From a virus: a DNA stretch of 45,323 nt. Each line of letters starts with the position of its first letter. Within the stretch, counting starts at the first letter, position 1. A model generated the notes under the pieces. The model was not told the origin of the DNA. It was given only the letters and a program-made list of their open reading frames with translations, and did no database searches. This document shows positions 15,623-44,240 of this stretch, in pieces. Location: the IMG/VR virus record IMGVR_UViG_3300037714_000078, positions 1 to 45,323 of that record. One strand, given 5' to 3'. The translations under genes and the position numbers were made by a program.

Positions 15623-15863
15623 CGTCCCCACCGATGCGCCGCTGTCGACCCAGGACGACGAGACGTACACCAACGCCATCACGACAGTGGCTGGCGAGGT
15701 CGGGTTCCACATCGACGCACAGACCCGGGTCATGCTCAAGGAGGCCTTCGAGGCGGGCGAGAAATACGGGCGGGACGACATCATGGCCCCCAGCTTCGAC
15801 GAGTGGCTCGACGGGTTCATTGAGCGGAAACTTGACATACCGTCACAGTCTGAGGGACACTAG
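15615..15863 (+). CDS. hypothetical acidic protein (82 aa)
   Basis: Track ORF. Confidence 0.6.
   Translation: MPDVPTDAPLSTQDDETYTNAITTVAGEVGFHIDAQTRVMLKEAFEAGEKYGRDDIMAPSFDEWLDGFIERKLDIPSQSEGH
15832..15861 (+). promoter_or_regulatory. promoter candidate TTGACAtaccGTCA ... GACACT embedded in the 3' end of the upstream gene
   Basis: -35 at 15832-15837. After an 18-nt spacer comes a weak -10, GACACT, 6 nt before ATG 15868. Confidence 0.45.
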
Positions 15864-18411: not shown

Positions 18412-18440
18412 GAGCCGGCTGGATACTCTCCAGCCGGCTC
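18412..18440. terminator. bidirectional terminator between the convergent early and late/lysis arms
   Basis: GAGCCGGCTGG (18412-18422) pairs with CCAGCCGGCTC (18430-18440), followed by TCGCGTTTTC. Confidence 0.8.
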
Positions 18441-18448
18441 TCGCGTTT

Positions 18449-19822
18449 TCAGATCTCGTAGTCGAAGATTTTGAAGTAGTGCGTGTCGGATCCCTGCTTG
18501 CCCAGGTTGGCGGACCCCGTCTTCTTGAGGTCATCAGTGACGACCATGTCGGGGGCCTTGCCGTCGACCGTGGCACCAGTCGGGGTGCCGATCTTGGCCA
18601 CCACCTTGTCGAAGGACTGGTTGTAGTCGCCGCCCGCCAGCGCAGGGTACGGAGAGGTCTCGATCCAGTCCACGATCGCAGCGTTAAACTCGGCGACCGC
18701 CTCAGCCCCGAACGGGCCGTGCACGTCCAGCAGACGTACATCCTTGCCCTCGACCTCGATGGTGACCGTGATCGGGGCACGGGGATCGTGCAGAGCACCG
18801 ACCTTGGGGCCCTTCCACGTCTCCCCCAAGTCCAGCAGAGCCTTGAACTGCACCGCCACGTCGTTGCGCACCAGCACGGTGTTGCTAGACGTCTCGATGA
18901 CGTGGCCCTCGTGGATCCGCTTGGGGGCGAACTGGATCACCTGGTAGCCCGGGATAGCCCACTTGCCGTACATCTGCGCCGTCTCCTGGAGCAGTACGGC
19001 GTGAGGCCGGTGCTTGGCCAGCAGAGCGCTGTAGGTCTTGTTGACCTCGGCGATAGCCCGCTTGACGTAGACGTTGTGGGTAGCCACCCGGACCTTGACC
19101 TTGGCCGGGGGCTTGGGTGGTGCGGGGACCTCGAAGCGGTACATGATCTGCAGGCCGTCTCCACCGAGCGACTTCTCGTCCGGCGTGGTGAGCCGGCCTG
19201 TGCCTCCGTGCTTGGTCTCGTAGGCCTTCCACGCGGCGAGCGTCTTCGGACCTACGTAGCCATCCACAGGCAGGTTCGCGCCTGCCTTGACGTTGAGCGC
19301 GTTCTGGATGGCCGCGACGCCGTGGTAGCGCTTGGGCTCGCCAGCGCGAACACCGGCGGCCTTCTGGAACTCCTGCTGCACCAGTGCGAGGTTGGAGACC
19401 ACGTCCGGGTTCCACTGCCATACGCGCTTCTCCGGGGCGAGCCAACGACTGGTGTCGCGCCAGGCGGTGAGGTTCTCCTGCACGCTGACGTGGATGTGAC
19501 CGGTGTGCGGGTTGCCGGTGTACGCGCGAGCGCGCCAGCCGTAGGTCCGCGACCAGATGACGCCCTTGTGGATGACGTACCAGACCCGGTGATCACCGAT
19601 CACCGCGTCGAGCACCTGCCGAGCCAGGCTGCGGCCGGCGTCGTTGTCGTCGATGTCCAGGTCCAGCCCACGCACCGCACCGGAGTCGGTGGGGTTGTGG
19701 CTGGAGAACCGGGTGGCGTGGCTGTCGTCGCCGATCCACCCGTCGCTGGACTTGTCGCGCTTCGGGAATCGCGCGTTGACCTCGTTGCGCAGGGCAACGA
19801 GCGAGGGGACGAGGTAGGCCAT
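18449..19822 (-). CDS. endolysin: M15/VanY-like peptidase + PG_binding_1 + C-terminal endonuclease/exonuclease/phosphatase (EEP) domain
   Basis: SSHNPTDSGAVRGLDLD and HTGHIHVS indicate an M15-type Zn peptidase. VDGYVGPKTLAAWKAY indicates a peptidoglycan-binding repeat. VATHNVY, AVLLQE, GGDYN and GSDTH match the EEP motifs. Confidence 0.75.
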   Translation of the reverse strand: MAYLVPSLVALRNEVNARFPKRDKSSDGWIGDDSHATRFSSHNPTDSGAVRGLDLDIDDNDAGRSLARQVLDAVIGDHRVWYVIHKGVIWSRTYGWRARAYTGNPHTGHIHVSVQENLTAWRDTSRWLAPEKRVWQWNPDVVSNLALVQQEFQKAAGVRAGEPKRYHGVAAIQNALNVKAGANLPVDGYVGPKTLAAWKAYETKHGGTGRLTTPDEKSLGGDGLQIMYRFEVPAPPKPPAKVKVRVATHNVYVKRAIAEVNKTYSALLAKHRPHAVLLQETAQMYGKWAIPGYQVIQFAPKRIHEGHVIETSSNTVLVRNDVAVQFKALLDLGETWKGPKVGALHDPRAPITVTIEVEGKDVRLLDVHGPFGAEAVAEFNAAIVDWIETSPYPALAGGDYNQSFDKVVAKIGTPTGATVDGKAPDMVVTDDLKKTGSANLGKQGSDTHYFKIFDYEI

Positions 19823-19947
19823 TACTTGTCCTCTTCCGCGATCATCGGGTCATCGACGAAGTCGCCGACAGCCTCGTCCGGGTCCTCAGCGCCCTCCGGG
19901 ACGGCGATGACCTCAGGGATGTCCGGCTCTTCGGTGGGGTTGCTCAT
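19822..19947 (-). CDS. hypothetical 41-aa highly acidic protein
   Basis: Hand translation MSNPTEEPDIPEVIAVPEGAEDPDEAVGDFVDDPMIAEEDK. It overlaps both neighbours' start and stop codons. Confidence 0.5.
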   Translation of the reverse strand: MSNPTEEPDIPEVIAVPEGAEDPDEAVGDFVDDPMIAEEDK

Positions 19948-20201
19948 GATCCGTCAGCTCCTGTCGTGATCTTGTAACCCTCGGCGTCGGTGCCGGTGAC
20001 GTTGCCCTGCGCGGTGAGCCCGGTGTAGGTCCACAGCGCGGCGAGCGCAGCCACGGTGATGTTGAACCAGCCGGGGATGTCGTTGATGCCGTAGACCCCG
20101 ATCAGGACCGGGGTGGCCACGACGGTGGCACCAGTGGTGATCCACTGGCCCAGCAGGAATCCTTCGCGCACCCGGGGGTGCTTGTTCAGCGGGTTGTACA
20201 T
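19944..20201 (-). CDS. holin-like membrane protein (two predicted TM helices)
   Basis: Hydrophobic stretches FLLGQWITTGATVVATPVLIGVYGI and WFNITVAALAALWTYTGL. It is adjacent to the lysin. Confidence 0.6.
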   Translation of the reverse strand: MYNPLNKHPRVREGFLLGQWITTGATVVATPVLIGVYGINDIPGWFNITVAALAALWTYTGLTAQGNVTGTDAEGYKITTGADGS

Positions 20202-21264: not shown

Positions 21265-21949
21265 CCGTGTCTCCTGTCGGTTTCTCTGAGCACTGTTCAA
21301 CCACGTCAGGTTTGGTCATCACGCATTCGTAGGTAGTCGAGGGCCAGATCGGGGGGTTCTCGGGAACCACGAAGGCAAACGTAAACGGGTAGGCACTCTG
21401 CCCACGCGGCCCCTCTACAGTGTCACCCTTCTCGCCCTTCAGCGACGCGAGCCACTCCCCGATCGTGCCCTGAAATCCGGTGCCCACCGCCAGCTCGTAC
21501 GCCGACAGGCCGTTCGCACCGTCTGCGCCGTCGACAGCTACGGCATCGGCCCCGTCCTTGCCGTCCTGTCCTGGCTTCCCGTCCTGGCCGTTTCGCCCAG
21601 GCTTGCCATCCTGGCCGTCCTTACCGTCACGGCCGTCGTCTCCAGCGATCACGACCGGAGGGACGACCGGGTCAGCTTCGACGTTCTTCTCGACGACCTT
21701 GGCCTTGTCGCAGATGCTGCCCGTGAACGCCCCGGAGTCGCACTCCGCCTGGACGTGCTCGGCGAGGTCCCGAGCATCGTCGTCCCGGGACTCCTGCCGG
21801 ATGAAGAGCAGCGCCACCAGCACGGCGAGAATCGCCAGCCCGACGAGCTGACCGACTCGCGTGATCTGGAGCCACCGATGGGTCTTCGGATCGCGGCTGT
21901 GGGCCACGGCGTGCTCCACCGCGTGCTGCTCGATCTCCTCGTCAGTCAC
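21239..21949 (-). CDS. membrane-anchored collagen-like repeat protein
   Basis: TM helix VGQLVGLAILAVLVALLFI. Gly-X-Y run GDDGRDGKDGQDGKPGRNGQDGKPGQDGKDG (DNA 21551-21643). This is followed by LSAYELAVGTGFQGTIGEWLASLKGEKGD, a motif common in phage fibre proteins. Confidence 0.7.
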   Translation of the reverse strand: MTDEEIEQHAVEHAVAHSRDPKTHRWLQITRVGQLVGLAILAVLVALLFIRQESRDDDARDLAEHVQAECDSGAFTGSICDKAKVVEKNVEADPVVPPVVIAGDDGRDGKDGQDGKPGRNGQDGKPGQDGKDGADAVAVDGADGANGLSAYELAVGTGFQGTIGEWLASLKGEKGDTVEGPRGQSAYPFTFAFVVPENPPIWPSTTYECVMTKPDVVEQCSEKPTGDTGEDSDPSS

Positions 21950-22187
21950 GATACCGCTCCTCCATGCAGGCCTCGTACCGAGACTTCCAGTAGACGATCT
22001 GCTCGTCCTTGAACTGTATCCGCTCCTCGTGAACCAGATGTTCCTTCTGGATCACCTGCTGGGCAGAGTCCTCTGCGGACTTGGCCTTCTCCCGGTTGGT
22101 GTTCATCCGGCCTACGAAGACGTTCCCGAGGGTGGCGACGGCGACTCCCGCAAACGAGGCTATGGCAGCGATTACGAGCGGGTCCAC
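21942..22187 (-). CDS. membrane protein with N-terminal TM helix and coiled-coil tail (lysis-associated?)
   Basis: MDPLVIAAIASFAGVAVATLGNVFVG, then a charged helical region. Confidence 0.55.
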   Translation of the reverse strand: MDPLVIAAIASFAGVAVATLGNVFVGRMNTNREKAKSAEDSAQQVIQKEHLVHEERIQFKDEQIVYWKSRYEACMEERYRD

Positions 22188-29828: not shown

Positions 29829-31754
29829 CTAGTCGCAGCACATGCTCAGCGCGCCGTTGATGGTCCAGATCCCCCCGACGCACCCGCCTTGGTTGTCGAC
29901 GGGCCGCCATGAGACTGGGATCAACTTATCACGCTCGTTGAGGTTCAGCGCGTCACAGCAGGTGATGGCCGAGAGGATCTGATCGGCGTCGAGAGCCTGC
30001 TTCCACGCGTCGGCGGCCACGGCGTCCACGCTGGGCGGCTCGCCGTTCTTGCCCATCGGCGCGGCGCACCGGGTGATCCCGATCTCGGCGGTGTAGCGGA
30101 TCACCTGGCACTTGCCTGTGGCCGAGTCGATGCTGATGGATGATGGCTGCAGGTTGGCCCAGAGCTGGCCCTCGCCGCCAGAGCAGGAGTCACCGCACGC
30201 GTCGAAGGCGACCTCGCCGCCAGGGTAGAGCGAGATCCGGCACGGCTCGATATCGAGCGGGCACCCGCCGGAGACCTCGGGTGTGGTGAGTACCTCCAGC
30301 ACGCGCTCCAGCGTGCCCAGGACCAGGACGAACGGTGTCATATTCGTAGCTCCCGAACTTGTTGGGGCCCCCATAACCGAGGTAATGACCGACACCGTGC
30401 CGGTCGCCGTATGCTGCTGACTGGTCGTGACGATGGGCGCGCCGATCGCATCCGTGACCACCGCAACCGTACCGGTGGCCAGTTGAGCACTGGTCGGTGC
30501 GCCGGCGGCACTCGTGGTGACGGCCGCCGTACCCATGGCCATCTGAACGCTGGCCGGGGTGCCTGCGGCGTCCGTGACCACCTCGGCGGTACCTGTGGCC
30601 GGGTGCGCGGCTATCGCGGCGTCGCTCGCTGTAGTCACCACGGGAACGGTCCCTGTGGCCGCGTGGAGTACGACGGCAGACCCCGAGGCCGCCGAGATGA
30701 CCTCGACCTCTCCGAAGGCGGAGTAGACCCCCGCCGCTCCCTGCACCGTGGGGCTTCCGAAGGCCTCGGTGATCACGTCCACCGAGCCGGAGGTCAGATG
30801 CACCGAGGTGGGTGCACCTTCCACGACGCTGGTCACCGAGATGGTCCCCGTCGCGCTCTGCTGCACGGACGGAGCGCCGGCGGCCGCACTCGTCACCGAG
30901 ATGGCTCCTGTCGCGCTCTGCTGAACGCTCGGTGCACCGGCGGCCTCGCTGGTCACCGGGATGGCTCCCGACGCGGCGAACAGAGACGAGGCGGCCCCGA
31001 GAGCGGCGGTTACCGCAACCGCAGCCCCGGCCGCCGTAGCACGGAGAGCCGCCGAGCCTACTGCGGCTGAGGTGACCGGGACAGCGCCCGTGGCCGCGTG
31101 CTGTGTCGCACCCGCAGGTACGTTGAACGCGAAGACCAGGCGCTCGATCGTCGGACTGCCAACCGTCGAGGTAGCGGCGCTGGAGAACGTCCCCGCCGCG
31201 CTGTCCTCGACATAGGCCAGCGAGTAGCCGTATCCGTCGGTGACGTCATCGGCGGCGGCCGTGTCAACCGCCTCGGTGCCGACCGACCAGGTGTAGGTCG
31301 GAGACGTCGCCGCGTTGATGTCCTGGCAGGCCACCGCACAGCGCAGCGTCGCCGTGGCGGTCAGACCGCTGAGAGAGGGGCCTGCACCACCTGAGGAGAC
31401 GTTGCCCTGCGCTGCCGAGCCGATGAAGGCGGTCCCGGCGGGGAACTCGTAGATGTCGAAGACAACCGGGTAGTTCGAGGCGTTGTGCGTCGTGGTGAAC
31501 GTGTCCCCGCCGGCGGCCGTCCGGTACCAGAGGTAGACGCCGGCGTTGTTGACCGCAAAGCCTCCGGTGGGCAGCGTCCAGCCGGTAGGCGTGGACGAGG
31601 TGACCGCCCCGCCTGCGATGCAGACGAGGACTCTCCCAGCAGTCGGGGTGAACGCTGCGCCCGCAACGACCACGCCAGACGAGGGATCGACGGTGTGTGT
31701 GGTGGAGCCGTTACGAGGCGCAGCGATGGTGACGTGGTTCAACCACTTGACCAT
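29829..31754 (-). CDS. 641-aa virion-module protein: N-terminal beta-rich domain + 12 x ~20-aa repeats + Cys-rich connector-like C-terminal domain
   Basis: Single open frame with a GGGAGG RBS before ATG 31754. An internal in-frame ATG at 30341 lies 8 nt after GGGAG. Confidence 0.75.
   Translation of the reverse strand: MVKWLNHVTIAAPRNGSTTHTVDPSSGVVVAGAAFTPTAGRVLVCIAGGAVTSSTPTGWTLPTGGFAVNNAGVYLWYRTAAGGDTFTTTHNASNYPVVFDIYEFPAGTAFIGSAAQGNVSSGGAGPSLSGLTATATLRCAVACQDINAATSPTYTWSVGTEAVDTAAADDVTDGYGYSLAYVEDSAAGTFSSAATSTVGSPTIERLVFAFNVPAGATQHAATGAVPVTSAAVGSAALRATAAGAAVAVTAALGAASSLFAASGAIPVTSEAAGAPSVQQSATGAISVTSAAAGAPSVQQSATGTISVTSVVEGAPTSVHLTSGSVDVITEAFGSPTVQGAAGVYSAFGEVEVISAASGSAVVLHAATGTVPVVTTASDAAIAAHPATGTAEVVTDAAGTPASVQMAMGTAAVTTSAAGAPTSAQLATGTVAVVTDAIGAPIVTTSQQHTATGTVSVITSVMGAPTSSGATNMTPFVLVLGTLERVLEVLTTPEVSGGCPLDIEPCRISLYPGGEVAFDACGDSCSGGEGQLWANLQPSSISIDSATGKCQVIRYTAEIGITRCAAPMGKNGEPPSVDAVAADAWKQALDADQILSAITCCDALNLNERDKLIPVSWRPVDNQGGCVGGIWTINGALSMCCD
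30350..31094 (-). repeat. coding tandem repeat array (~60-bp period, 12 degenerate copies)
   Basis: Protein repeats of the type ATGxxxVTSxAxGAPxSVQQS span residues about 220-469. The DNA units 30841-30900 and 30901-30960 align column for column. Confidence 0.85.
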
Positions 31755-31849
31755 GACTTACACCTCCCGTATCATTGACACCGCGTCGTGGTTGCGGGTT
31801 TCGAGTCCCGCCCGGCAAGCGCCGGTAGCTCAAGGCAGAGCGTCGACAG

Positions 31850-35342: not shown

Positions 35343-36956
35343 TCAGGGGGTCGGGCAGCCGCAGGCGATGTCCGTGACCAGCTCGAAGGCGTACGAGGAG
35401 CAGCCCCGGAAGGCGGTCTTTTCGAACGTTTCGGCGAAGGCCTGACGGTCGTTGGTCGCGTTGAGGCTGGAGTCCGTGATCTGGGTGCCCAGGTCGAGCG
35501 TGCCACCGTCGAGGAACATCCACGCGTCCTCGGGGTAGACGTAGACCGTCGCGGCGGCCAGCGGGAGGCCGACAGCGGTGGGGATGTTGTGGTCCCCGGT
35601 CTGCTCGTCCACCGTGCCGTCCACGGTCCAGACCGCGCGCACGTTGACGTCGGCGAGCCACCCGGCGATCATCGCGTCGGCGATCTGGATGGTCTCGGCG
35701 TTGTTGGCCACACCCATGTTGCGGATGACCTGGTTGCGGATCGCGTCCCGGACGTAGGAGTCGGTCAGCACGACGTACTGGCCGGTCAGGTTGCGCTGGA
35801 TGGCGCGGTCCTGGGCGACGATCGTGTTGATGTTCTCCAGGAAGTTGGCGATGACGTTGCCACCGTCGACCAGCGAGCCGGCCGCGATGAAGGTCGAGCC
35901 CTCGTGGATCTCGACGAGCGACTTCTGCTCCGCGACCCGGTCGTGCAGCGCGAGGAGCAGCTCCAGGCGCGAGGCCCACAGCTCGGGGCTGAAGGTCGCC
36001 TGGAAGTTGCCGATCGTGAGGCATCGGGTTACCGCGTCCACGGCGGCCGTCAACTCCTCGGGGCACTCGACCGGGGGACACGGCTTGACGCCGGAGGCCG
36101 GGGCCGCTGCGTCCATGGCCGGGGTCCAGATGGACACCGCGCCGTCCACGTCACCGAGGCCGGCGGCGGGGGAGTAGGTGACCTGGCCGCGCGCGGCGTT
36201 GAACTGCACGAGGCTGTCGCGAACCGGGCGACCCCGGTCAGCGCAGATCGGGTGGGAGAAGTCGACCTCACCGGGGCCACACAGGCCACCGGCCGCAGCC
36301 ACCGGGCGAGAGGTCTGGCCGTAGCCGAAGACGTCGGTGATCCGGCGGTTGTTGACCTCGACATTGAACCCGAGCTGACGGCTCTCGTCGAAGTCGCGGG
36401 TCAGGCGGAAGAGGCGGTCGGACTTGCCGATGCCCTGGACCGACTTGGCGTGGGTGGAGAACATCTTGCCGAGGTCGGCGAAGGTGCCGGTCCCGACGTC
36501 GTAGCCGGCGGCCGGACCGACTGCTGTGGTGCGTACGCCGCCCATGGTCTTCGGCTTCTCCTGCTCGGGTGCCTTGGTCGCGGCGTGACGCTTGAGCCGC
36601 TCGATGATGCCCGCCGCTGCGACGGGCTCCTTGATCTCGGCCTCGACAACCGGGGTCTCCTCGACGGGAGTCTCCTCGGCCGGGGTCTCCGGGGTGTCGT
36701 CGAAGATGCCCTCGCGGAGCTTCTTCGCCTCGGCGCGGCGCTCCTCGCGAGCGGACTCGCGGTCGTCGGCTGCCTTGGTGACGACCTGGAGCGCCTCGGC
36801 GAGGTCCTTCGCCAGGTCCAGCTCCGGCTCGTCGGCCTTGGTGGCGACGTCGAGTGCCTCGCGGATGTCCTTGGCCGCCGTCTCCAGCTCGGCGTCCGTG
36901 GGTGCGGGGCCGGTGTAGTCCTCGGCGAGCTTGGCAATGATGTCGAGCGGGTCCAT
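35343..36956 (-). CDS. major capsid protein with N-terminal coiled-coil (scaffold/delta-like) domain
   Basis: 537 aa from ATG 36956, which lies 7 nt after GGGAGGGG. The first ~150 aa are charged and helical. The C-terminal body ends ...SSLNATNDRQAFAETFEKTAFRG, which is HK97-family-like. The extension to 37094 was rejected. Confidence 0.7.
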   Translation of the reverse strand: MDPLDIIAKLAEDYTGPAPTDAELETAAKDIREALDVATKADEPELDLAKDLAEALQVVTKAADDRESAREERRAEAKKLREGIFDDTPETPAEETPVEETPVVEAEIKEPVAAAGIIERLKRHAATKAPEQEKPKTMGGVRTTAVGPAAGYDVGTGTFADLGKMFSTHAKSVQGIGKSDRLFRLTRDFDESRQLGFNVEVNNRRITDVFGYGQTSRPVAAAGGLCGPGEVDFSHPICADRGRPVRDSLVQFNAARGQVTYSPAAGLGDVDGAVSIWTPAMDAAAPASGVKPCPPVECPEELTAAVDAVTRCLTIGNFQATFSPELWASRLELLLALHDRVAEQKSLVEIHEGSTFIAAGSLVDGGNVIANFLENINTIVAQDRAIQRNLTGQYVVLTDSYVRDAIRNQVIRNMGVANNAETIQIADAMIAGWLADVNVRAVWTVDGTVDEQTGDHNIPTAVGLPLAAATVYVYPEDAWMFLDGGTLDLGTQITDSSLNATNDRQAFAETFEKTAFRGCSSYAFELVTDIACGCPTP

Positions 36957-37049
36957 CTGGACCCCTCCCTTCGGTTGCATGACTAGGAGGCGGTCCCTAT
37001 GGGACTGCGTTGACAGAAAGATAACACACGGCGAGCAGGGGCAAAGACC

Positions 37050-37079
37050 TTGACAGGGCGTCATGGCGGGGCGTAGAGT
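37050..37079 (+). promoter_or_regulatory. sigma70-like promoter TTGACAgggcGTCA-…-TAGAGT (cassette promoter 1)
   Basis: -35 at 37050-37055, an 18-nt spacer, and -10 at 37074-37079. An AGGAG RBS precedes ATG 37113. Confidence 0.65.
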
Positions 37080-37112
37080 CTCACTCATGACCACCTACGA
37101 CAGGAGCGCATC

Positions 37113-37310
37113 ATGATGGACATCTCCCAGATCGCGCACCAGGCCACCGACGACCTGGCCATGATCGAGCAGCTGGCCGCCAACACGCTGCTCACCAAGG
37201 CTGAGCGAATCGCCCGAATCACCACGGTGTGCGACGACTTTCGCCGGCTCTGCCAGGGCAGCAGCCATGACCCGTACCGCCCCCACCCCTACCGGACGGA
37301 TGGTGTGTGA
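37113..37310 (+). CDS. hypothetical protein (65 aa)
   Basis: Track ORF with high GC3 in the plus frame. Confidence 0.65.
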   Translation: MMDISQIAHQATDDLAMIEQLAANTLLTKAERIARITTVCDDFRRLCQGSSHDPYRPHPYRTDGV

Positions 37311-37462
37311 TGGTCGACGAGAGACGCGGAGTCTTCATCTGCCAACAGTGCTACGCGACATCGTTCGACACCGAGCCCGAAGCGGTGAAGCACGAAGACA
37401 CGCTCGACCACTCCACGGTGTGGTCACCCGCAAACCCGACGCCCCGAAGTGGAGACGAGTGA
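37310..37462 (+). CDS. hypothetical 50-aa protein with C-x2-C…H-x5-H pattern
   Basis: Hand translation MVDERRGVFICQQCYATSFDTEPEAVKHEDTLDHSTV…, with a TGATG overlap. Confidence 0.5.
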   Translation: MVDERRGVFICQQCYATSFDTEPEAVKHEDTLDHSTVWSPANPTPRSGDE

Positions 37463-37629
37463 TGGGCAAGGACCCGAACAAGCTCAACCCGCCACCGCGA
37501 GGCAAGAAGTCCTCGTCGATCGGGCCGGCCATCGCGTTCATCGTGGTACTGATCTTCGCGGCCAAGGGCTGCGACACCACCCCGCCGGACGTCACGCCGG
37601 TCCCACCGAGCCAGACGGAGCGACGATGA
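37462..37629 (+). CDS. small membrane or lipoprotein-like protein (55 aa)
   Basis: …SSSIGPAIAFIVVLIFAAKGCDTTPP… is a TM/signal-like helix followed by a Cys. TGATG overlap. Confidence 0.55.
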   Translation: MGKDPNKLNPPPRGKKSSSIGPAIAFIVVLIFAAKGCDTTPPDVTPVPPSQTERR

Positions 37630-37757
37630 AGTGGCTCGTGCTCCGGCCGAAGCCGCGCCCGGTCTGCACGCACGCCTGGGCGACACTGGATGGCCTGACG
37701 TGGTGCGTCCACTGCGGACTGGCCCCCAGACTTGACAGAGAGTCAAGAAAGGTGTAG
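37626..37757 (+). CDS. hypothetical 43-aa Cys/His protein
   Basis: MKWLVLRPKPRPVCTHAWATLDGLTWCVHCGLAP…, with an ATGA overlap. Confidence 0.45.
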   Translation: MKWLVLRPKPRPVCTHAWATLDGLTWCVHCGLAPRLDRESRKV

Positions 37758-37760
37758 AGT
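37732..37760 (+). promoter_or_regulatory. sigma70-like promoter TTGACAgagaGTCA-…-TAGAGT, leaderless (cassette promoter 2)
   Basis: -35 at 37732-37737, a 17-nt spacer, and -10 at 37755-37760. ATG 37768 lies 7 nt downstream with no SD. Confidence 0.7.
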
Positions 37761-37767
37761 TCCTCTC

Positions 37768-38154
37768 ATGACCTTCCGAGACCAGCTCGCCAACCTGATG
37801 CAGATCGCTCTCCTCGCCATCGTCTCCGTGCTCGCCACGTGGGGGCTGGCCAACCCGGTGGACGTCAAGTCCATCGACGGCAACGAGCCGCAGAATGCCC
37901 CGTCGTACGCCAGCGCGGTGCACCGTGAGGCCGCTGGCCTGATGTGCCAGGTCGAGACCGGCAGAGCCGGAATCATCCCGTCAGGCAACGACGTGGTCGC
38001 GGCGTACGTCGTCGTGGTCCGTCTGGACGGGGTCATGGAGCGCATGGACACCACCGAGGCGTGGGACCGCGCCAGGTCCAAGAAGGAGGCCGACAACGTC
38101 TGGGTCATCGGCGTGTGCCGAGCCGACGTGCAGAACCGGGCGGTGAAGGCGTGA
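37768..38154 (+). CDS. secreted or membrane protein (128 aa)
   Basis: N-terminal hydrophobic helix LMQIALLAIVSVLATWGLA. Internal ATG of track ORF 37732..38154. Confidence 0.65.
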   Translation: MTFRDQLANLMQIALLAIVSVLATWGLANPVDVKSIDGNEPQNAPSYASAVHREAAGLMCQVETGRAGIIPSGNDVVAAYVVVVRLDGVMERMDTTEAWDRARSKKEADNVWVIGVCRADVQNRAVKA

Positions 38155-38333
38155 TGGGCAAGGCACTGCTGATCATCGGCGCGACGTTCGCGGCGGCCGC
38201 CCTGGTGCTGGTGTTCTTCCTGGGGCTGTTCGTCCCCGAGCCTGAGCCGGCCTACACGCCCGACGAGTGCACGCTCGAGCCAGACGGCTTCTGTGCCACC
38301 TGGCATGACTACCACGACAATGACTGGGAGTAG
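38154..38333 (+). CDS. small membrane protein (59 aa)
   Basis: MGKALLIIGATFAAAALVLVFFLGLFV…, with a TGATG overlap. Confidence 0.6.
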   Translation: MGKALLIIGATFAAAALVLVFFLGLFVPEPEPAYTPDECTLEPDGFCATWHDYHDNDWE

Positions 38334-38336
38334 ACG

Positions 38337-38750
38337 ATGAACAACGTCACCGCAGCCACCATCGTTACCATCATAGACGTGATCCTGCTCATCGGGATTC
38401 TGCTCGACGTCGGCCCGTTCAAGCCGGTTCGGCCGGGCCTTGAGTTCTTCTGGCGGGCTCTCCGAGCATTCCTCCACGACTTGACCCACCGCCGGCCGGA
38501 TCCCCCACTGCACCGGGCTCTGTCCTCTGACCAGATCGAGGAACTGGAGATCGAGTGCTACATCGGGCCGTACGCCGAGCCGTTCCGGGCCGACTCGCTG
38601 AAGGCCCGCGAGGCTCTGCGGCGGAAGCGACACGCCGTACGCGTGGTCCCGCCCTGCGAACTGAGTGACGCCACGGAGCATCTCTTCGCAATGAACGGGC
38701 GCTGTGTCCTGTGCGGGGGCGGCCGTCGCGAGACGGAGGCCAATCGATGA
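38337..38750 (+). CDS. membrane protein (137 aa) with C-terminal CxxC
   Basis: N-terminus AATIVTIIDVILLIGILLDV and C-terminus NGRCVLCGGG. Track ORF. Confidence 0.65.
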   Translation: MNNVTAATIVTIIDVILLIGILLDVGPFKPVRPGLEFFWRALRAFLHDLTHRRPDPPLHRALSSDQIEELEIECYIGPYAEPFRADSLKAREALRRKRHAVRVVPPCELSDATEHLFAMNGRCVLCGGGRRETEANR

Positions 38751-38789
38751 CCAGAGCCCCCTGCCGACAGGATAGGCAGGGGGCTCTGG
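38751..38789. terminator. bidirectional terminator (perfect 15-bp stem) between the cassette and the convergent protease gene
   Basis: CCAGAGCCCCCTGCC (38751-38765) pairs with GGCAGGGGGCTCTGG (38775-38789), giving a 9-nt loop. Confidence 0.75.
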
Positions 38790-38843
38790 AGTCTTCAGCG
38801 TGGCGGGATCATCGGCAGCGCCTGACCTCCCCCGCCACCCCGT

Positions 38844-40004
38844 CTATTTGGTGATGGTGGGCCAGGCCGGGCTGACCACCGCGTGCGCTCCGCACAGCGT
38901 GAGGCCGGAGTATCCCGGCACCGGCCACTTCTCCACCGAGATCGGAGCGCCGGCGACCTTGGACAGCGTCAGCTCGTCCAGACCAGGCACGATCGAGCCA
39001 GAGGCGCACAGGCGGCCCTGCGAGTCCTCCCAGGCCACCACCCGAGCCCACACCGTGCTGGTGTTCTCGTGGTAGGCGCGCTGGCCGTCCAGGCTCAGCC
39101 CGGTGTCGGCGTGCAGGCTGGCACACGTCAGCGAGCCCACCCGGATCACCTCGCCGTTGTCGAGCGTGGCCGTGCCCACGTGGAAGTTGCGCAACTTCGG
39201 GTCAGCGTCGGCGGTGTACTTCTTGCACTGGGTGGTGTCGCCGTTGCGGAAGCAGCCGTCGCCGGCCATGTGTCCGAAGACCCGGCCGTCGGGGGTGACC
39301 TGGAACGGGACGATCTCGCGGGACTCGAAGCGAGCGAAGTGCTCGGCCGGGTAGGTGGCCACCCGGGCGGCGGCCGCGAGCGCCTCCATCGGGCCCAGGG
39401 CCGGACGGGAACCCGGCCACGCCGGGGTGTCGACGATCGCGAGATGACGGATACGCGCCTTGATAGTCCACGCCATCTGGTCGGAGACCTTGTATTGGAT
39501 CTTCACCGTGCCGTCGGGACCCTCGGTGTAGTCGGGCTCCTTCAGCTCGATCTCCACCTCTTCGTCGTCCATCATGACCGACCAGCCCAGGGCGTTCTCC
39601 GCGATCAGCTCGGCGACCCGGGCCACCGCTGCGGCCGCCTCGGGGTCGTCGGTGCCGAACAGGCGGGCGGACTGGACGTAGAGGCCAGAGTTGTCGGCCA
39701 TCCACTCGTCCACGACACCGAGCGTCATGCCGGTGTGGTCGCCGTCCTCGCGGTCCCAGATGATCGGGACCGACTGGCCCTCGGCCTCCCAGCTCAGCGC
39801 GCCCTTGCGTACGCCGCGACCGTCGCCGGTCGGAGTGTCGTAGGGCACCGCCTGGCCGTGGATCAGGATGTCCTTGCCGGCGGCGACGATGGCCGCAGCC
39901 TGCAGCTCCTGCTCGCACGGGAGGCAGTCGTCGTCTGCGCCCGGCTTGCGGAACATGCTCATGGTCCGCGCGGCCCTGAAGGACCGCAGTGTCATCTCAC
40001 TCAT
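38844..40004 (-). CDS. capsid maturation (prohead) protease, S78/HK97-like N-terminal domain
   Basis: IIWDREDGDHTGMTLGVVDEWMADNSGLYV and ALGWSVMM fit the His/Ser protease pattern. ATG 40004 overlaps the portal stop (ATGA) and follows a GAGGAG. Confidence 0.6.
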   Translation of the reverse strand: MSEMTLRSFRAARTMSMFRKPGADDDCLPCEQELQAAAIVAAGKDILIHGQAVPYDTPTGDGRGVRKGALSWEAEGQSVPIIWDREDGDHTGMTLGVVDEWMADNSGLYVQSARLFGTDDPEAAAAVARVAELIAENALGWSVMMDDEEVEIELKEPDYTEGPDGTVKIQYKVSDQMAWTIKARIRHLAIVDTPAWPGSRPALGPMEALAAAARVATYPAEHFARFESREIVPFQVTPDGRVFGHMAGDGCFRNGDTTQCKKYTADADPKLRNFHVGTATLDNGEVIRVGSLTCASLHADTGLSLDGQRAYHENTSTVWARVVAWEDSQGRLCASGSIVPGLDELTLSKVAGAPISVEKWPVPGYSGLTLCGAHAVVSPAWPTITK

Positions 40005-42013
40005 CGGTTTCTCCTCAGGACCGGTACCACAAGGCACTGACACCCGGCATGGTCGCCGGGGTAGAAGTTCGAGCCGCCCTCCAGGATGGTACCGCCGGGA
40101 CGCACCGAGCGGCCGGCGAGACTCAGGTGGACGGGGTGCGGGCTGGGCCCGCTGTAGGCGTGGTGCCAGATCCACTCATCGGCCACCAGACCGTAGTCGG
40201 CGTTCATGATCTCGATCGCCCGGATCCCGAGCGCGATACCGCGCGGAGCTGTCTGCACGCCGGAGGCCGAGACGATCGGCTGCACCTGCGGGTCGGGGTT
40301 GCCCCCGAGCAGGGCCATCACGCGCTTGGCCCCGAGCCAGGCCTCAGCCTTGCCGGGGGCTCCACCGCGTCGAGCAGCCACGACCTTGGCCACCTCGGCC
40401 TGGAACGCCGCGAACGCGTCGTTGACTTCAGAGGGGTGCGGGTCCAGCGCTAGCCCGGCCAGCTTGATCTTGCGGAAAGCCCGGGAGACGAAGCGCTCAA
40501 ACTGCGGCTCGAACTTCCGGGCCGTGTCTGCCACGTTCTCGTCCTGGTTCGGGATCTCCGGACCGTAGGCGATCGCCACATCCTGGTTCGGGATGTCAGG
40601 CAGCTCGATCTTGCCGCCTTGGGCCACCGAGCGCAGTCGTGCACCGAGACGCTCCAGCGCACGGTCCCCCGCGTCGGCGATCAGGTCCTGCATCGCCTCG
40701 GAGAACTCCACGTCCAGATCAGCCAGCCGCTCGACGTTGACCGAAGACGGCTTGGATGGTGCTGGGCTGGACTCGATCGCGACGGGCTCCGTCTGCGCAG
40801 CGGCTACCGCTGCGGGTTCCGCGCTGGCCGGAGCGGCGTCCGGGATCCTGCGAGCCTCAGCCTTGGCGGCCTGCATGGCCAGCAGGCCGGGGCCGGCGTT
40901 CTCCAGGGTGGCCCCGAGCTGCTCCAGCGCCCACTCCTCACCGGCGATGCCCAGCTCTGCGGCCTTCAGCGCGTCAGCGATGGTCGGACGGCGGCGCAGC
41001 AGGCCGGCCGGGTCCGGGGTGATCTCGATGTCCGTCTCGTTGTCGAGCGCCTGCTCCAGCGCCTGTGCGAAGCCCTCACCGATCGGGGAGGCCAGCGGCT
41101 CTACGTGGTTGAGCCAGTTGTCCTCCTGAACCAGCCACGCACCCCAGTGGTTGGTGTCGCCCATCCCGAGAAGGATCTCGATCGGGATGTCGAGGATGAC
41201 AGCGAGCTGACGGATCAGCCGGTCGATGCGCTCGTGGATCTTGTCGTCCAGCTCGCCGGTCAGGCTGATGGACTTGATCTGCTCGATGTACTCGGCGGGG
41301 AACCCGATCAGGTTGGGCACCACTGCGGAGGTGGACATCTCGTCGGCGAGCGGGGCCACCATCACGTCGATGAGGTCCTGCTCGAACTGCTTCGGGTCCT
41401 GGCCGGCTCCCTCGATCGGGTAGATCAACGTGTTGAGCTGCGCCGTACGTGAACGGGCCATGGCACGCGCCTGCCCCCGGGCGAGCAGCAGCTCCCGGGC
41501 GATGTCCAGCGCGGCGAGCACCGGTGAGTCCAGGCGGGCGTCCGGGTCGCGAGGGTCCTGGTTCTCCACCCGCACGATGACGTCGGCCCGGTCCAGCTTC
41601 TTCTTGGCCTTGGTGTCGAGCGGGTTGGGGAGGATCTCCCATTTTCCGGCAGGGCCTCCGACGCGGGCGAGGTAGTAGCCGCCTGGCACCTGGAGGTGGA
41701 TCGCGGCCTTGACCTGGAGGTCGCGGATCTCGGCCGGTGAGCCGAATGCGGCTCGGAAGATCTGGTCGGTGAGATTCTCATCGGGCTCGGAGCCGTTGAC
41801 CGACATGAACCACTTCAGCCGGCCGACGAGGCGGGCCTGCTGCTGGGTGGCGTAGTGGACCTCACCGACGAGGCGGTAGATGTCCCACGCCTCGGAGATG
41901 CGCCGGTCAGCGCGCCTGGTTTCGGAAGAGTCGAACTGGCCACGGGTGGAGGAGACGGCTGCGGCCGCTAGCCCCTTGGGCTGCGGCCGGAACAGGTCCT
42001 TAACCCACCCCAT
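40001..42013 (-). CDS. portal protein fused to a MuF/SPP1 gp7-like C-terminal domain
   Basis: 670 aa. The call rests on position between terL and the protease. The C-terminus …GGSNFYPGDHAGCQCLVVPV matches the MuF-type PxxHxxCxC signature. Confidence 0.7.
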   Translation of the reverse strand: MGWVKDLFRPQPKGLAAAAVSSTRGQFDSSETRRADRRISEAWDIYRLVGEVHYATQQQARLVGRLKWFMSVNGSEPDENLTDQIFRAAFGSPAEIRDLQVKAAIHLQVPGGYYLARVGGPAGKWEILPNPLDTKAKKKLDRADVIVRVENQDPRDPDARLDSPVLAALDIARELLLARGQARAMARSRTAQLNTLIYPIEGAGQDPKQFEQDLIDVMVAPLADEMSTSAVVPNLIGFPAEYIEQIKSISLTGELDDKIHERIDRLIRQLAVILDIPIEILLGMGDTNHWGAWLVQEDNWLNHVEPLASPIGEGFAQALEQALDNETDIEITPDPAGLLRRRPTIADALKAAELGIAGEEWALEQLGATLENAGPGLLAMQAAKAEARRIPDAAPASAEPAAVAAAQTEPVAIESSPAPSKPSSVNVERLADLDVEFSEAMQDLIADAGDRALERLGARLRSVAQGGKIELPDIPNQDVAIAYGPEIPNQDENVADTARKFEPQFERFVSRAFRKIKLAGLALDPHPSEVNDAFAAFQAEVAKVVAARRGGAPGKAEAWLGAKRVMALLGGNPDPQVQPIVSASGVQTAPRGIALGIRAIEIMNADYGLVADEWIWHHAYSGPSPHPVHLSLAGRSVRPGGTILEGGSNFYPGDHAGCQCLVVPVLRRNR

Positions 42014-42350
42014 TGGCGCTCACCGCTGGGGTCTGGTCGAGCGCTACGAGCTGTTCCTGAGTCCAGGTCTGCCACCGGCTGGAGCACCCACAGCCGGACC
42101 ACGTGAAGCCGTTGAACTTCGCGGCCTTGCTCCCGCGTCGATCGAAGACGGCGTCCTCGGCGATCTCGTAGGAGCTGACCGCGCGAACGGTCTTGCCCTT
42201 GTCACCCGACTCGGCGATGTAGAGGCGGCCTCCGTGGGTGAAGGCACGCGCGAACGTCACAACACGACTGGAGTTTGTCGACAGCGGGCCCCGAACGGTC
42301 AAGGGCCATTGGTCGAACGAAGGAGCCTCTGGCACGAGATCAGCGTACAC
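42000..42350 (-). CDS. hypothetical protein (116 aa)
   Basis: Track ORF with a GTG start. Confidence 0.55.
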   Translation of the reverse strand: MYADLVPEAPSFDQWPLTVRGPLSTNSSRVVTFARAFTHGGRLYIAESGDKGKTVRAVSSYEIAEDAVFDRRGSKAAKFNGFTWSGCGCSSRWQTWTQEQLVALDQTPAVSANGVG

Positions 42351-42354
42351 GACG

Positions 42355-43044
42355 TCACGGGGTGAAGAGACGCTCCACTGCTGTACGGCGGTTGTCCTTG
42401 ACGTCGACGGTCATCTTCACCTCGGCGCTCCACACCTCGCGCCAGTGATTCGGTGCGGCGTACTCCGAGACGAACACCATTGCTCCGGCCTCGGCCCAGG
42501 ACTCCGCGACCTTCCAGAACCGCTCGGAGTCGAAGCCGTCCACCGCGCCGTACGTGGTGGTGTTGGCGTAGGGTGGATCACAGTAGACAAGGGTTCCTTC
42601 GCCTGGCGACCACGCATCGTAGGAGACATGTTGAAACTCGGGGGTGGGGTGCATCGCTGCAACCTTCCGCAGAAGTCCACGCGCGGCCGTGTCGGCGTAG
42701 TTGTACTTACCGCGTGCGTATCCTGCGAACCACTTACCTCCGAACGAACACCCAAACCCGGCGAACGACCGTAGCGCTGAAGGCTCATCTTCTCGAAGGC
42801 CTTTCCACTCCTCATGGGTGAGCGTGCTTGGCGGCTGCCACCCTTCAGCGAGCGCCTGCCACAGCAGGATCAGATCCTGATTCGCGTCCGACCCGATCGC
42901 CGTCTCGAACCACGGAGAGACCTCCGCGAACACCGAGCCGCCGCCGATGAAGGGCTCCAGGTAGGTGTGACACCGAGCCCCGTCGGCGATGAGGTACGGC
43001 GCTATCCGCTTGGCGATGCGCGACTTGCCGCCCATGTACTGCAT
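42355..43044 (-). CDS. dam: DNA N6-adenine methyltransferase (Dam / D12 class)
   Basis: MQYMGGKSRI, EPFIGGGSVF (AdoMet motif) and VYCDPPY (catalytic DPPY). Confidence 0.9.
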   Translation of the reverse strand: MQYMGGKSRIAKRIAPYLIADGARCHTYLEPFIGGGSVFAEVSPWFETAIGSDANQDLILLWQALAEGWQPPSTLTHEEWKGLREDEPSALRSFAGFGCSFGGKWFAGYARGKYNYADTAARGLLRKVAAMHPTPEFQHVSYDAWSPGEGTLVYCDPPYANTTTYGAVDGFDSERFWKVAESWAEAGAMVFVSEYAAPNHWREVWSAEVKMTVDVKDNRRTAVERLFTP

Positions 43045-43241
43045 CAGTCGATGAACCTCTCATACTCGATGTCTTCGCCGTTCAGCAGTTGAACCGAGAC
43101 ACCTCCGTCGATGGGGTCCATGCGGTTGTACTTGTCGACAGTCGAGGAGTAGTGAGCGTTGGCGATGTACTCGCGGTCGCCATGATCGGTTGACTCCAGG
43201 ATCTCTCCCTCCCAAAGAACCCGGGTCTCGAACCGACTCAT
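43044..43241 (-). CDS. hypothetical protein (65 aa)
   Basis: Track ORF. It is slightly lower in GC than its neighbours. It has start/stop overlaps on both sides. Confidence 0.55.
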   Translation of the reverse strand: MSRFETRVLWEGEILESTDHGDREYIANAHYSSTVDKYNRMDPIDGGVSVQLLNGEDIEYERFID

Positions 43242-43414
43242 CCGAAGTACCTCGCGAACAGGTCCTCGGCGTCGTAGTCGGCCGGGTCGAAGTCGGCTTC
43301 CTGGGCCGCGTCCACGCCCTCGCAGTAGCCAGCGAACCGGGTAGACGAAGAGACGGCCCCAGCGATCGCGTCGGTGATGCCCTGGATGAAGTTGCTGAGC
43401 TTGTCGGTGTCCAT
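43238..43414 (-). CDS. hypothetical acidic protein (58 aa), leaderless
   Basis: ATG 43414 lies 7 nt downstream of the -10 TAAGGT. The longer TTG-initiated track ORF would start inside the -35. Confidence 0.55.
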   Translation of the reverse strand: MDTDKLSNFIQGITDAIAGAVSSSTRFAGYCEGVDAAQEADFDPADYDAEDLFARYFG

Positions 43415-43421
43415 GAGTAGA

Positions 43422-43450
43422 ACCTTACCCTGATCATGACACTCTGTCAA
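43422..43450 (-). promoter_or_regulatory. sigma70-like promoter TTGACAgagtGTCA-…-TAAGGT, leaderless
   Basis: -35 at 43450..43445, a 17-nt spacer, and -10 at 43427..43422. Confidence 0.6.
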
Positions 43451-43459
43451 GAATGAGAG

Positions 43460-43490
43460 CCGCCCACAGTGGTGAGTTCACTGTGGGCGG
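43460..43490 (-). terminator. terminator hairpin (perfect 12-bp stem)
   Basis: CCGCCCACAGTG (43460-43471) pairs with CACTGTGGGCGG (43479-43490). On the minus strand it is followed by CTCTCATTCTT. Confidence 0.7.
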
Positions 43491-43556
43491 TTCGGGGGAT
43501 CAGGTGCCCCAGCTGGAGTCTTCTCGCATAGCGTCCACCTCCTTGGTTCGAGATGG

Positions 43557-43585
43557 ACGCTACGCCTCGACTGACAGCGTGTCAA
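43557..43585 (-). promoter_or_regulatory. sigma70-like promoter TTGACAcgctGTCA-…-TAGCGT overlapping the stop of 43582..43896
   Basis: -35 at 43585..43580, a 17-nt spacer, and -10 at 43562..43557. Confidence 0.55.
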
Positions 43586-43896
43586 GAGTCATTCGGGTCG
43601 AACCAGCCGATCATCCCGACCAGCGCGGAGACCGCCGGCCACAGCAGCGCCAGCCAGCCCAGCGGCAGGCCGAAGGCGAGCAGCCAGCCGAGCGAAGCAG
43701 CTCCCGAGATCCAGAACCCGCTGCACCACGGGCAGGTGACCAGCGTCGAGAGCCACTCCCAGCCTCGGCCCTCACGGAAGATGAAGCGCGCCCGGATCGG
43801 CTCGGTGATCGAGTCGAGGGCGATCAGCCGCCACACCCGATAGCTCGCCAGCGTCAGCAGAGGCAGGGCCAGCAGGACGGCCAGAAGTTCGCGCAT
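43582..43896 (-). CDS. DUF1360-like integral membrane protein
   Basis: Several hydrophobic helices and the CPWCSGFW motif. Confidence 0.6.
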   Translation of the reverse strand: MRELLAVLLALPLLTLASYRVWRLIALDSITEPIRARFIFREGRGWEWLSTLVTCPWCSGFWISGAASLGWLLAFGLPLGWLALLWPAVSALVGMIGWFDPNDS

Positions 43897-43897
43897 G

Positions 43898-43981
43898 GTC
43901 TGAGACTAGCGCAGCAGAACCCCCGGCCTACACCTACGAGGCCGAGGGTTCTTCGCTGCAGCGGGCGAACACGTCTCAGAC
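43898..43981 (-). terminator. nested inverted repeats (outer 9-bp stem, inner ~17-bp interrupted stem)
   Basis: GTCTGAGAC (43898-43906) pairs with GTCTCAGAC (43973-43981). GCAGC-AGAACCC-c-CGGCC (43911-43928) pairs with GGCCG-a-GGGTTCT-tc-GCTGC (43940-43959). Confidence 0.5.
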
Positions 43982-43997
43982 AACGAGGCTCAGCGTA

Positions 43998-44240
43998 TCA
44001 GGCGTCCTTGCCGAAAGCGGCGTCACGCGCCTTGCGTGCAGCCCTGATGAGCCGGTTGGCGTCGTCGCGGTCCAGGAGCGCGATGCTCCACTCAGATGTG
44101 TCCTTCGAGCCGAACGGCTGGATGTAGACCTGGAGCCACTGGCCACCGTTGGACCAGCCGATGCTGAGTCCGTCGCGCGTCTCTTGGCCCGGCTCTGTCG
44201 GCTCGGGTCGGATAACTACTTCTCGGGGCATCACGCCCAC
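43998..44240 (-). CDS. hypothetical protein (80 aa)
   Basis: Track ORF downstream of terL. Confidence 0.55.
   Translation of the reverse strand: MGVMPREVVIRPEPTEPGQETRDGLSIGWSNGGQWLQVYIQPFGSKDTSEWSIALLDRDDANRLIRAARKARDAAFGKDA

Follow-up and report, generated by a model that had tools for sequence, protein, structure and literature searches.

Exchange of small genes in a reverse-oriented block between the protease-like and capsid genes of an uncultured actinophage-related phage: a probable accessory-gene hotspot

The subject of this study is a block of seven chained open reading frames (ORFs), g1 to g7, in a phage contig of 45,323 nt and 66% GC (IMG/VR record IMGVR_UViG_3300037714_000078), the whole of which is called the window below. 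The block is read from the plus strand and fills the gap between a protease-like head gene and the major capsid gene, both of which lie on the minus strand. It is quite probably an accessory-gene hotspot, or 'cargo bay', at the point where two transcription units of the head module meet. Among described systems the nearest is, by analogy, the hyperplastic region of T4-type phages, in which clusters of small ORFans differ between phages that are otherwise ∼95% identical, promoter-early/stem-loop (PeSL) cassettes place a sigma70-like promoter and a stem-loop beside the ORFans and mediate modular shuffling, and the breakpoints of indels and replacements coincide with the PeSL regulatory sequences (Arbiol et al. 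2010, PMC2839356). The block is likewise a cluster of small ORFans that differs between near-identical phages. It likewise has repeated promoters, predicted to be strong and of sigma70 type, and a stem-loop, and its breakpoints lie at regulatory sequences, so that a swapped gene would arrive with or beside its expression signals. The two differ in that the T4-type element is a fused promoter-stem-loop repeat of ∼100 bp whereas a single unfused stem-loop closes the block, and in that the block lies inside a head module on the opposite strand, has dyad-bearing promoters of leaderless type and belongs to an actinophage-related lineage.

Non-structural genes are already known to interrupt the structural operons of actinophages, for example in Arthrobacter phages of Cluster AL (Klyczek et al. 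2017, PMC5513430). Here, as in Cluster AL, the order terminase, portal, protease, (scaffold), capsid is broken by non-structural genes. PMC5513430 makes no mention of reverse orientation whereas the block described here is reverse-oriented. A preliminary description of the locus, made from the letters alone, had compared the block with a moron. Morons, reportedly named in lambdoid phages by Juhala and colleagues in 2000 and reportedly exemplified by gp15 of HK97 in the work of Cumby and colleagues in 2012, are extra genes in the late or structural region with their own promoter and terminator, and often encode small membrane proteins that act in superinfection exclusion. They are single insertions, usually of atypical composition, that are found in one phage but not in its relatives and are expressed from the prophage.

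The gap between the protease-like and capsid genes measures 1887 bp (36957 to 38843), and the seven ORFs fill 37113 to 38750. The elements of the window block, in their order, are as follows.

37050 to 37079, plus strand: predicted promoter P1, TTGACA-18-TAGAGT, with its -35 within the dyad TTGACAgggcGTCA (37050 to 37063)
37087 to 37116, plus strand: leaderless ORF of 9 codons, MTTYDRSAS and stop, its ATG 7 nt past the P1 -10 and its TGA overlapping the g1 ATG
37113 to 37310, plus strand: g1, 65 amino acids (aa)
37310 to 37462, plus strand: g2, 50 aa
37462 to 37629, plus strand: g3, 55 aa
37626 to 37757, plus strand: g4, 43 aa
37732 to 37760, plus strand: predicted promoter P2, TTGACA-17-TAGAGT, with the dyad TTGACAgagaGTCA
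37768 to 38154, plus strand: g5, 128 aa, leaderless start
38154 to 38333, plus strand: g6, 59 aa
38337 to 38750, plus strand: g7, 137 aa
38751 to 38789, both strands: hairpin, a perfect GC-rich stem of 15 bp with a 9-nt loop, between the convergent g7 and protease genes

Neighbouring ORFs are joined by TGATG (g1/g2, g2/g3 and g5/g6) or ATGA (g3/g4), with a 3-nt gap at g6/g7. The exact sizes of the seven ORFs, their TGATG/ATGA chaining, their high GC at third codon positions (GC3) in the plus frames, the capsid start at 36956 and the protease end at 38844 were all as the preliminary description had given them. An exact 13-nt repeat, GTGATGGGCAAGG, was observed at the g2/g3 junction (37459 to 37471) and at the g5/g6 junction (38151 to 38163); g3 and g6, downstream of its two copies, both begin with MGK. 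The repeat is a possible microhomology for gene exchange.

Relatives were collected from metagenome contigs (soil and others) using the capsid, g1, g5 and g7 as anchors, and are numbered L003 to L010, L012 and L014. Every relative found carried a reverse-oriented block between capsid and protease, and at least nine related architectures were seen. Their gene orders, to be compared with that of the window (P1, 9-codon ORF, g1, g2, g3, g4, P2, g5, g6, g7, hairpin), include the following, TM denoting transmembrane.

L004: P1, 57-aa C2H2-like protein, g1, g3, g4, 164-aa C-terminally anchored protein; P2, 44-aa TM protein, g6, 111-aa soluble protein, hairpin
L003: HNH endonuclease, P1, 10-codon ORF, g1, g4; P2, 129-aa anchored protein, 57 aa, 84 aa, g7 remnant, hairpin
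L007: 113 aa, g1, 114 aa (g2-type finger and C-terminal domain), g4, P2, 129 aa, GIY-YIG/T5orf172 protein
L008 and L009: 113 aa, g1, 115 aa (PF24623 finger, C-terminal domain of L007 type), g3-like, g4; P2, divergent g5, 49-aa TM protein, g7 homologue, hairpin
L012: g7 alongside the 129-aa protein, which stands in place of g5
L010 and L014 (more distant): promoter, g5 homologue, PF24623 protein and others, without g1

The window and L004 are 93–95% identical in the flanks of the block. Inside it, homology detected by blastn extends up to 37091 and then covers g1, the C-terminal part of g3 together with g4, 44 nt of P2, g6, and the sequence from 38746 on; in the stead of g2, g5 and g7 of the window, L004 has unrelated genes. 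The homology breaks fall at P1 with its ATG (37091), at both edges of P2 (37728 to 37771) and at the hairpin (38746), and the remaining breaks lie at or near gene starts and stops save one within g3 (37501). The gene for the 57-aa C2H2-like protein of L004 has the same first and last codons as the 9-codon ORF of the window, which suggests that the 9-codon form is either an in-frame deletion of 138 nt or an empty slot. Among the relatives g5, g6 and g7 assort independently. Read from these alignments, the comparison shows a conserved framework of P1, g1, g4, P2 and hairpin within which cargo genes are exchanged one by one, and shows such exchange even between phages with ∼95%-identical flanks. 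The preliminary view of the block as a moron-type indel did not survive this synteny comparison, since the block was at the junction in all nine related architectures and only single genes varied. Its view that the genes are accessory and not head-assembly genes was borne out, the content differing in every relative and no product matching a head family. Head-assembly factors would further differ from the block in that the latter is on the opposite strand, is variable in content and has no head-and-packaging PHROG match.

Three further observations concern the contents of the block in other contigs. In L003 an HNH_3 gene (2310 to 2861, minus strand) lies between the capsid promoter block and P1. 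A GIY-YIG/T5orf172/MUG113 protein is encoded by the last gene of the block in L005 to L007 (L005 2483 to 3184; L007 2444 to 3214). A g5 homologue of 51% identity occurs outside the head module in L011, a 61-kb contig (5001 to 5372), within a long run of small plus-strand genes beside a Prim-Pol/D5_N primase, where an ATGA overlap links it to the preceding gene and a separate promoter is lacking. From this gene context, g5 is used in an early operon of another phage.

The plus frames of g1 to g7 have a GC3 of 0.76–0.91 and a GC at second codon positions (GC2) of 0.42–0.55. The GC content of the block is 0.656 against 0.662 for the window, and the codon frequencies of the block give a cosine of 0.958 equally to the structural genes and to the replication genes. 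The composition and codon usage of the block are native. On the minus strand an ORF of 312 codons with a GC3 of 0.76 (37743 to 38681) runs across g5 to g7. Of the substitutions that distinguish g1, g3, g4 and g6 in the window and L004, 32 of 49 fell at third positions of the plus frames, which are first positions in the minus-strand shadow frame. This pattern, as read from the alignment, shows purifying selection on the plus frames. The minus-strand ORF was rejected as a gene, the codon-position pattern of the substitutions marking it as a shadow ORF.

P1 and P2 were the only two promoter sites of their type in the window, and none appeared in 100 shuffles of the sequence. An ATG follows the -10 by 7 nt at both, at 37087 for P1 and at 37768, the g5 start, for P2. 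This confirmed the earlier observation of two promoters with the same -10, the second of them 7 nt before a leaderless ATG. Both -35 hexamers form half of a dyad, TTGACA-N4-GTCA, which, like the ATG after P1, the preliminary description had not mentioned, and the -35 and dyad of P2 are embedded in the last 9 codons of g4. P1 is conserved in L003, L004, L007 and L009, while copies of P2 precede different genes in L003, L004, L007, L009 and L010. In L004, P2 forms a 44-nt island of 91% identity between unrelated flanking genes. The GTCA is invariant in the P1 and P2 copies of the relatives and the 4-nt spacer is variable. The 7-nt spacing between -10 and ATG recurs at P1 or P2 copies in L003, L004, L005 to L007 and L010.

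The dyad class TTGACA-N4-GTCA has 14 matches on the two strands of the window against 1.8 expected, and beyond P1 and P2 there are six more promoter-like sites in the window with the same dyad. Such sites were placed as follows.

4654 to 4682 (4654/4663), 8217 to 8246, 10636 to 10649 and 15832 to 15845, plus strand: dyad sites upstream of replication genes
43585 to 43557 and 43450 to 43422, minus strand: dyad promoters in the interval between terminase and portal

At the minus-strand promoter at 43450 the ATG is again 7 nt after the -10. The dyad looks like an operator for a dimeric regulator, going by its symmetry and recurrence. At the 4654 site the dyad lies between -35 and -10 and not on the -35, which favours an operator. 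Candidates for the dyad-binding protein are an HTH_17 protein (3866 to 4087) and a sigma-70 region 4-like protein (707 to 1204). A promoter-like TTGACC-17-TATCAT with an adjacent near-dyad TTGACAccgcGTCG was also observed on the plus strand at 31747 to 31788, between genes of the minus-strand tail region. By this distribution the promoters of the block belong to the phage's general set of host-type promoters and are neither private nor imported. The earlier claim of autonomous expression can thus be kept for the predicted possession of own promoters and terminator, but not for private promoters, given the genome-wide dyad class.

The perfect 15-bp hairpin that the preliminary description had placed at the end of the cassette was confirmed. 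Its minimum free energy is -39.4 kcal/mol on the plus strand and -38.0 kcal/mol on the minus strand (z -5.5 and -5.2). Across five loci 97% of cells pair, with compensatory double changes at 3 of 13 pairs, and when the register was slid the pairing was at most 55%. Rfam gave no matches over the region, and a T-run is absent from both strands beside the hairpin. The hairpin is probably a bidirectional terminator that ends two converging units, as its position and covariation suggest. The window has one other convergent junction, between a plus-strand methyltransferase gene and a minus-strand lysin-like gene, and a second hairpin is found there.

18412 to 18440: second hairpin, perfect 12 bp, GAGCCGGCTGGA-5-TCCAGCCGGCTC

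This is probably a second bidirectional terminator, to judge from its placement.

The preliminary description had asked how the capsid gene is transcribed, either from an unrecognised minus-strand promoter within 36957 to 37112 or by transcription reading antisense through the block. The first answer is favoured by an extended -10 that is invariant in five loci.

37018 to 37026, minus strand: candidate capsid promoter Pcap, an extended -10, TGtTATCTT
36995 to 37003, minus strand: small palindrome CCCATAGGG in the presumed 5' leader of the capsid gene, present once in the window

When the sequences upstream of the capsid gene were aligned for the five loci, the invariant columns were exactly T-G-n-T-A-n-n-n-T on the minus strand, and this pattern is kept in the divergent L003 and in L010 (TGcTAGGGT). 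The palindrome, always 14 nt from the -10, is shared by the window, L004, L007 and L009, while L003 and L010 keep part of it. The argument for Pcap is one of conservation, the bare motif being too short for significance by itself. It is plausible that TGtTATCTT is the extended -10 promoter of the capsid operon, and the head genes appear from these elements to form two transcription units with the block at the boundary between them. A 15-mer upstream of the capsid gene was also considered as a repeated late-promoter motif and was rejected, being unique in the window.

The head genes next to the block are the following.

35343 to 36956, minus strand: major capsid gene, ATG at 36956, Shine-Dalgarno sequence GGGAGGGG
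38844 to 40004, minus strand: protease-like head gene (phrog_859, 1.5e-28; phrog_18402 head maturation protease, 5e-13)
40004 to 42013, minus strand: portal gene (phrog_776)

The capsid product matched the phrog_777 major head protein in the PHROG scan (5.4e-31) and has ∼30% identity with annotated actinophage major capsid proteins; the gene is 90–95% identical between the window and L003 or L004. Its N-terminus, ∼125 aa that are charged and coiled-coil-like (36580 to 36956, minus strand), lies outside the tblastn matches to annotated capsids and probably represents, by these features, a delta or scaffold domain in fused form; this would account for the lack of a separate scaffold gene. The open frame on the protease side spans 38844 to 40175 and its likely start is at 40004, where an ATGA overlaps the portal stop. 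The assignment as a protease is by PHROG only because the Pfam scan gave no match. The GenBank relatives of the portal and capsid are nearly all actinobacteriophages (26–32% identity). Among 50,697 phage records, megablast with the region found no match and neither did tblastn with g5 and g7, so no deposited phage encodes either of these two; an IMG/VR scan anchored on the capsid recovered no relative. On these matches the phage is a member of an uncultured lineage related to actinophages. In its annotated distant relatives Forza and DSL-LC01 the genes from portal to capsid are all co-oriented, although with ∼30% capsid identity these phages are too distant to inform on the question of an indel. 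The window also encodes a primase-helicase, a helicase, an exonuclease, a DNA polymerase, a methyltransferase, a lysin-like protein, a glycosyltransferase, a tape measure protein and a terminase.

Scans of Pfam, PHROG, PADLOC and NCBIfam with the seven products and three L004 cargo proteins gave nothing above threshold, and searches of PDB sequences with profiles from the g1, g5 and g7 alignments gave no matches. A segment was called hydrophobic when its Kyte-Doolittle 19-residue mean (KD19) exceeded 2.0, and g3, g5, g6 and g7 pass this cut-off (2.0–2.8). The preliminary description had four products starting with a hydrophobic helix; the number four holds but the g3 segment is at residues 19–37 and not at the start. 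Its three products with Cys/His pairs were recovered as g2, g4 and g7.

Among the products of the P1 half, g1 is soluble and helical and is the core gene of the block, present in the window, L003 to L009 and L012. Its family has only 4 clusters among 5.8 billion proteins (78–100% identity) and an exhaustive profile search added only three plausible remote relatives. These keep the pattern ERIARIT.VCD.FR..GS..DP(Y/F)R and lose C47, H52 and H58. A zinc site in g1 was rejected, the Cys and His residues being absent from the remote relatives. The g2 product has a C2H2-like finger, C-x2-C-x13-H-x5-H, and its gene occupies a variable slot, being absent from L004 and L003. The L007 114-aa protein has an N-terminal finger that shares 81% identity with g2 (E 6e-23). 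In L008 and L009 a PF24623 'putative DNA-binding phage zinc finger' (31.9 bits in the L008 115-aa protein against a cut-off of 24 bits) replaces the g2-type finger on the same C-terminal domain. Membership of g2 itself in PF24623 was rejected, there being no match at E ≤10, and the analogy is one of position only. The g3 product has a basic N-terminus, one TM segment (KD19 maximum 2.02) and a Pro-rich tail, with homologues in L004 and L008. A lipoprotein was considered for g3 and discarded, as the Cys after the TM segment is not conserved in L008 and the lipoprotein match was weak and below threshold. In g4 the pattern C-x-H-x10-C-x2-C is kept by homologues in L003, L004, L007, L008 and L012.

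Among the products of the P2 half, g5 begins with a helix that is either a signal or an anchor, followed by an alpha+beta ectodomain of ∼85 aa in which two Cys are invariant. Its family has 8 clusters, in which C60, C117 and MDTTEAWDR are invariant; it is absent from L004 and follows the promoter in L010, L014, L008 and L009. The AlphaFold2 model of the ectodomain is usable, with a predicted local distance difference test score (pLDDT) of ∼80, and a Foldseek search with it against PDB and BFVD gave nothing better than E 0.1. The 129-aa protein of L003 and L007 was rejected as a detectable homologue of g5 (BLASTP E 0.75). The g6 product has an N-terminal TM segment (KD19 maximum 2.77) and an acidic tail with two Cys, and at the nucleotide level its gene and the L004 homologue are 90% identical and differ mostly at third positions. 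In g7 a variable N-terminal TM segment precedes a conserved C-terminal Cys/His domain, in which C74, C107, H115, C123 and C126 (including a CxxC) are invariant across a family of 15 clusters. The AlphaFold2 model of this domain is unusable (pLDDT ∼50). In L008, L009 and L012 the g7 gene closes the block; L004, L007 and L010 have unrelated genes in its place. The envelope-directed module of the preliminary description is thus retained for the P2 half but not for the P1 half, which encodes small soluble proteins.

Superinfection exclusion by early proteins is known from lytic phages, as with Imm and Sp of T4 and Llp of T5. The block products resemble these in being small, probably early and, by hydropathy, membrane-anchored or exported, and the anchor or signal of g5 with its ∼85-aa ectodomain fits the general architecture of Sp. 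They differ from Imm, Sp, Llp, SieA and gp15 in that no sequence or fold similarity was found (PHROG, Pfam, PADLOC and NCBIfam; Foldseek for g5) and in that the lipoprotein signal of g3 is not conserved.

These results can be brought together in the following scheme for the accessory-gene hotspot. Host RNA polymerase would start at the predicted P1 and P2, and the 5' ends of the transcripts would fall on or beside the ATGs that follow the -10s by 7 nt, which would make the first cistrons leaderless. The following cistrons would be translated by TGATG/ATGA coupling. Transcripts from both promoters would stop at the hairpin, which would also end the converging unit of portal and protease, and the genes from capsid to tail would be served by an extended -10 promoter of their own that lies back-to-back with P1. 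The -35 dyad of P1 and P2 recurs at the replication-gene promoters, and the block is therefore probably co-switched with the replication genes, a single dyad-binding regulator probably acting on both early in infection. The P1 half may supply small soluble regulators or inhibitors; nucleic acid or host proteins are the probable targets of its products, of which two have Cys/His motifs. For the P2 half, with one exported and several membrane-anchored products, the cell envelope is the probable site of action. Judged solely by architecture and by the turnover of the genes, the likeliest roles are to take over the host and to exclude competing phages, and not to assemble heads.

Several points weigh against this scheme. 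We infer promoter activity, timing and termination from the sequence, and the promoters, the leaderless starts, the function of the terminator and the timing are predictions throughout. The dyad promoter class is also found upstream of the portal gene and is therefore not strictly 'early'. The hairpin stem, strong and covarying as it is, carries no U-tract, and termination by hairpins without a U-tract in high-GC bacteria is disputed. The roles are guesses from architecture, no product having a homologue of known function in the library and Foldseek searches. Finally, g1 is kept at 78–87% identity in most relatives, which could mean that it has an important, non-accessory function.

The classical moron, a foreign and independently transcribed insertion that is expressed from a prophage and benefits the lysogen through superinfection exclusion or defence, is an improbable description of the block. 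Resemblances exist, as the genes are flanked by their own predicted promoters upstream and a predicted terminator downstream, membrane proteins are encoded, and single genes are present or absent among close relatives. However, the block is universal in its clade, the whole of it lying at the same site in all relatives, and it comprises two operons with native GC and codon usage and with promoters of a genome-wide class. No lysogeny gene was recognised among the window ORFs scanned, which makes expression from a prophage unlikely, and the phage encodes its own primase-helicase, helicase, exonuclease and DNA polymerase. The PADLOC scan was without matches.

It is also unlikely that the block is a regulatory device for the head genes, in which a dyad-bound protein or g1 shuts the cassette and switches on or times capsid transcription while convergent transcription into the hairpin insulates the portal/protease unit. 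P1 and the candidate capsid promoter are indeed back-to-back with predicted starts ∼76 bp apart, the intergenic region between P1 and capsid is near-identical in the window, L004, L007 and L009, g1 is the one near-universal gene and always the first after P1, and the dyad is conserved though its spacer varies. Against this, the HNH gene of L003 puts ∼0.5 kb between the capsid promoter block and P1 with its dyad, g1 is wholly absent from L010 and L014 and has no recognisable DNA-binding domain, and no link was found between the dyad and any cassette product. Another form of the idea, in which the block would be a conserved timing switch that silences the early cassette and activates the capsid-to-tail operon in a layout comparable to lambda PR/PRM, is a little less likely still.

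A part in lysis or release, with holin-, antiholin- or spanin-like small membrane proteins encoded away from the lysin, would accord with the single TM segments of four small products and with the 164-aa C-terminally anchored protein in the L004 block, but it is very unlikely: the lysin-like gene (18452 to 19822, minus strand) has its own adjacent small TM proteins (19944 to 20201 and 21942 to 22187), the membrane genes of the block are not conserved between relatives, PHROG gave no lysis matches, and the promoters are of the replication-gene class and not of the late-gene class. That the frames arose by chance, or that the 312-codon minus-strand ORF is the real gene, is barely credible although high-GC DNA yields long spurious ORFs on both strands and that ORF has a GC3 of 0.76, since the placement of the substitutions at plus-frame third and shadow-frame first positions refutes it, the g1, g5 and g7 families are conserved as proteins (43–87% identity) in many contigs, and the plus frames combine high GC3 with low GC2.

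Some features elsewhere in these contigs deserve mention. The interval between terminase and portal (42000 to 44240, minus strand) holds non-structural genes that have their own promoters and run in the same direction as the head genes. Among them are a Dam-like methyltransferase (42355 to 43044) with a DPPY motif, whose relatives match PF02086, a DUF1360 membrane protein (43585 to 43896) and several small ORFs, one of them leaderless (43414). By its gene content this interval is a second accessory island. The 12.8-kb contig L003 (DASUXL010000001.1) is wholly phage-like and is binned in a 'Candidatus Limnocylindrales' (Chloroflexota) metagenome-assembled genome, while the annotated relatives of its capsid and portal are all actinophages; the binning may be either a mis-binning or a hint of the host. 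The portal gene of L008 (6800 to 9754) encodes 984 aa against 667–670 aa elsewhere and has a weak Intein_splicing match, so that it probably carries an intein.

Nothing known about phage genome organisation is overturned by the accessory-gene hotspot proposed here. The regulatory parts predicted at the locus are short, portable and conserved: an extended -10 promoter, a covarying hairpin as terminator candidate, and a leaderless promoter whose dyad resembles an operator. The block may be a safe insertion site for engineering such phages. The locus also provides three uncharacterised families, namely g1, the exported g5 and the membrane-anchored Cys/His protein g7, in which activity in exclusion, takeover or anti-defence may be sought. 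Above all the locus is a clean natural example of a fixed expression framework with small genes exchanged inside it, in an unusual placement on the opposite strand between the protease and capsid genes of an uncultured actinophage-related lineage.

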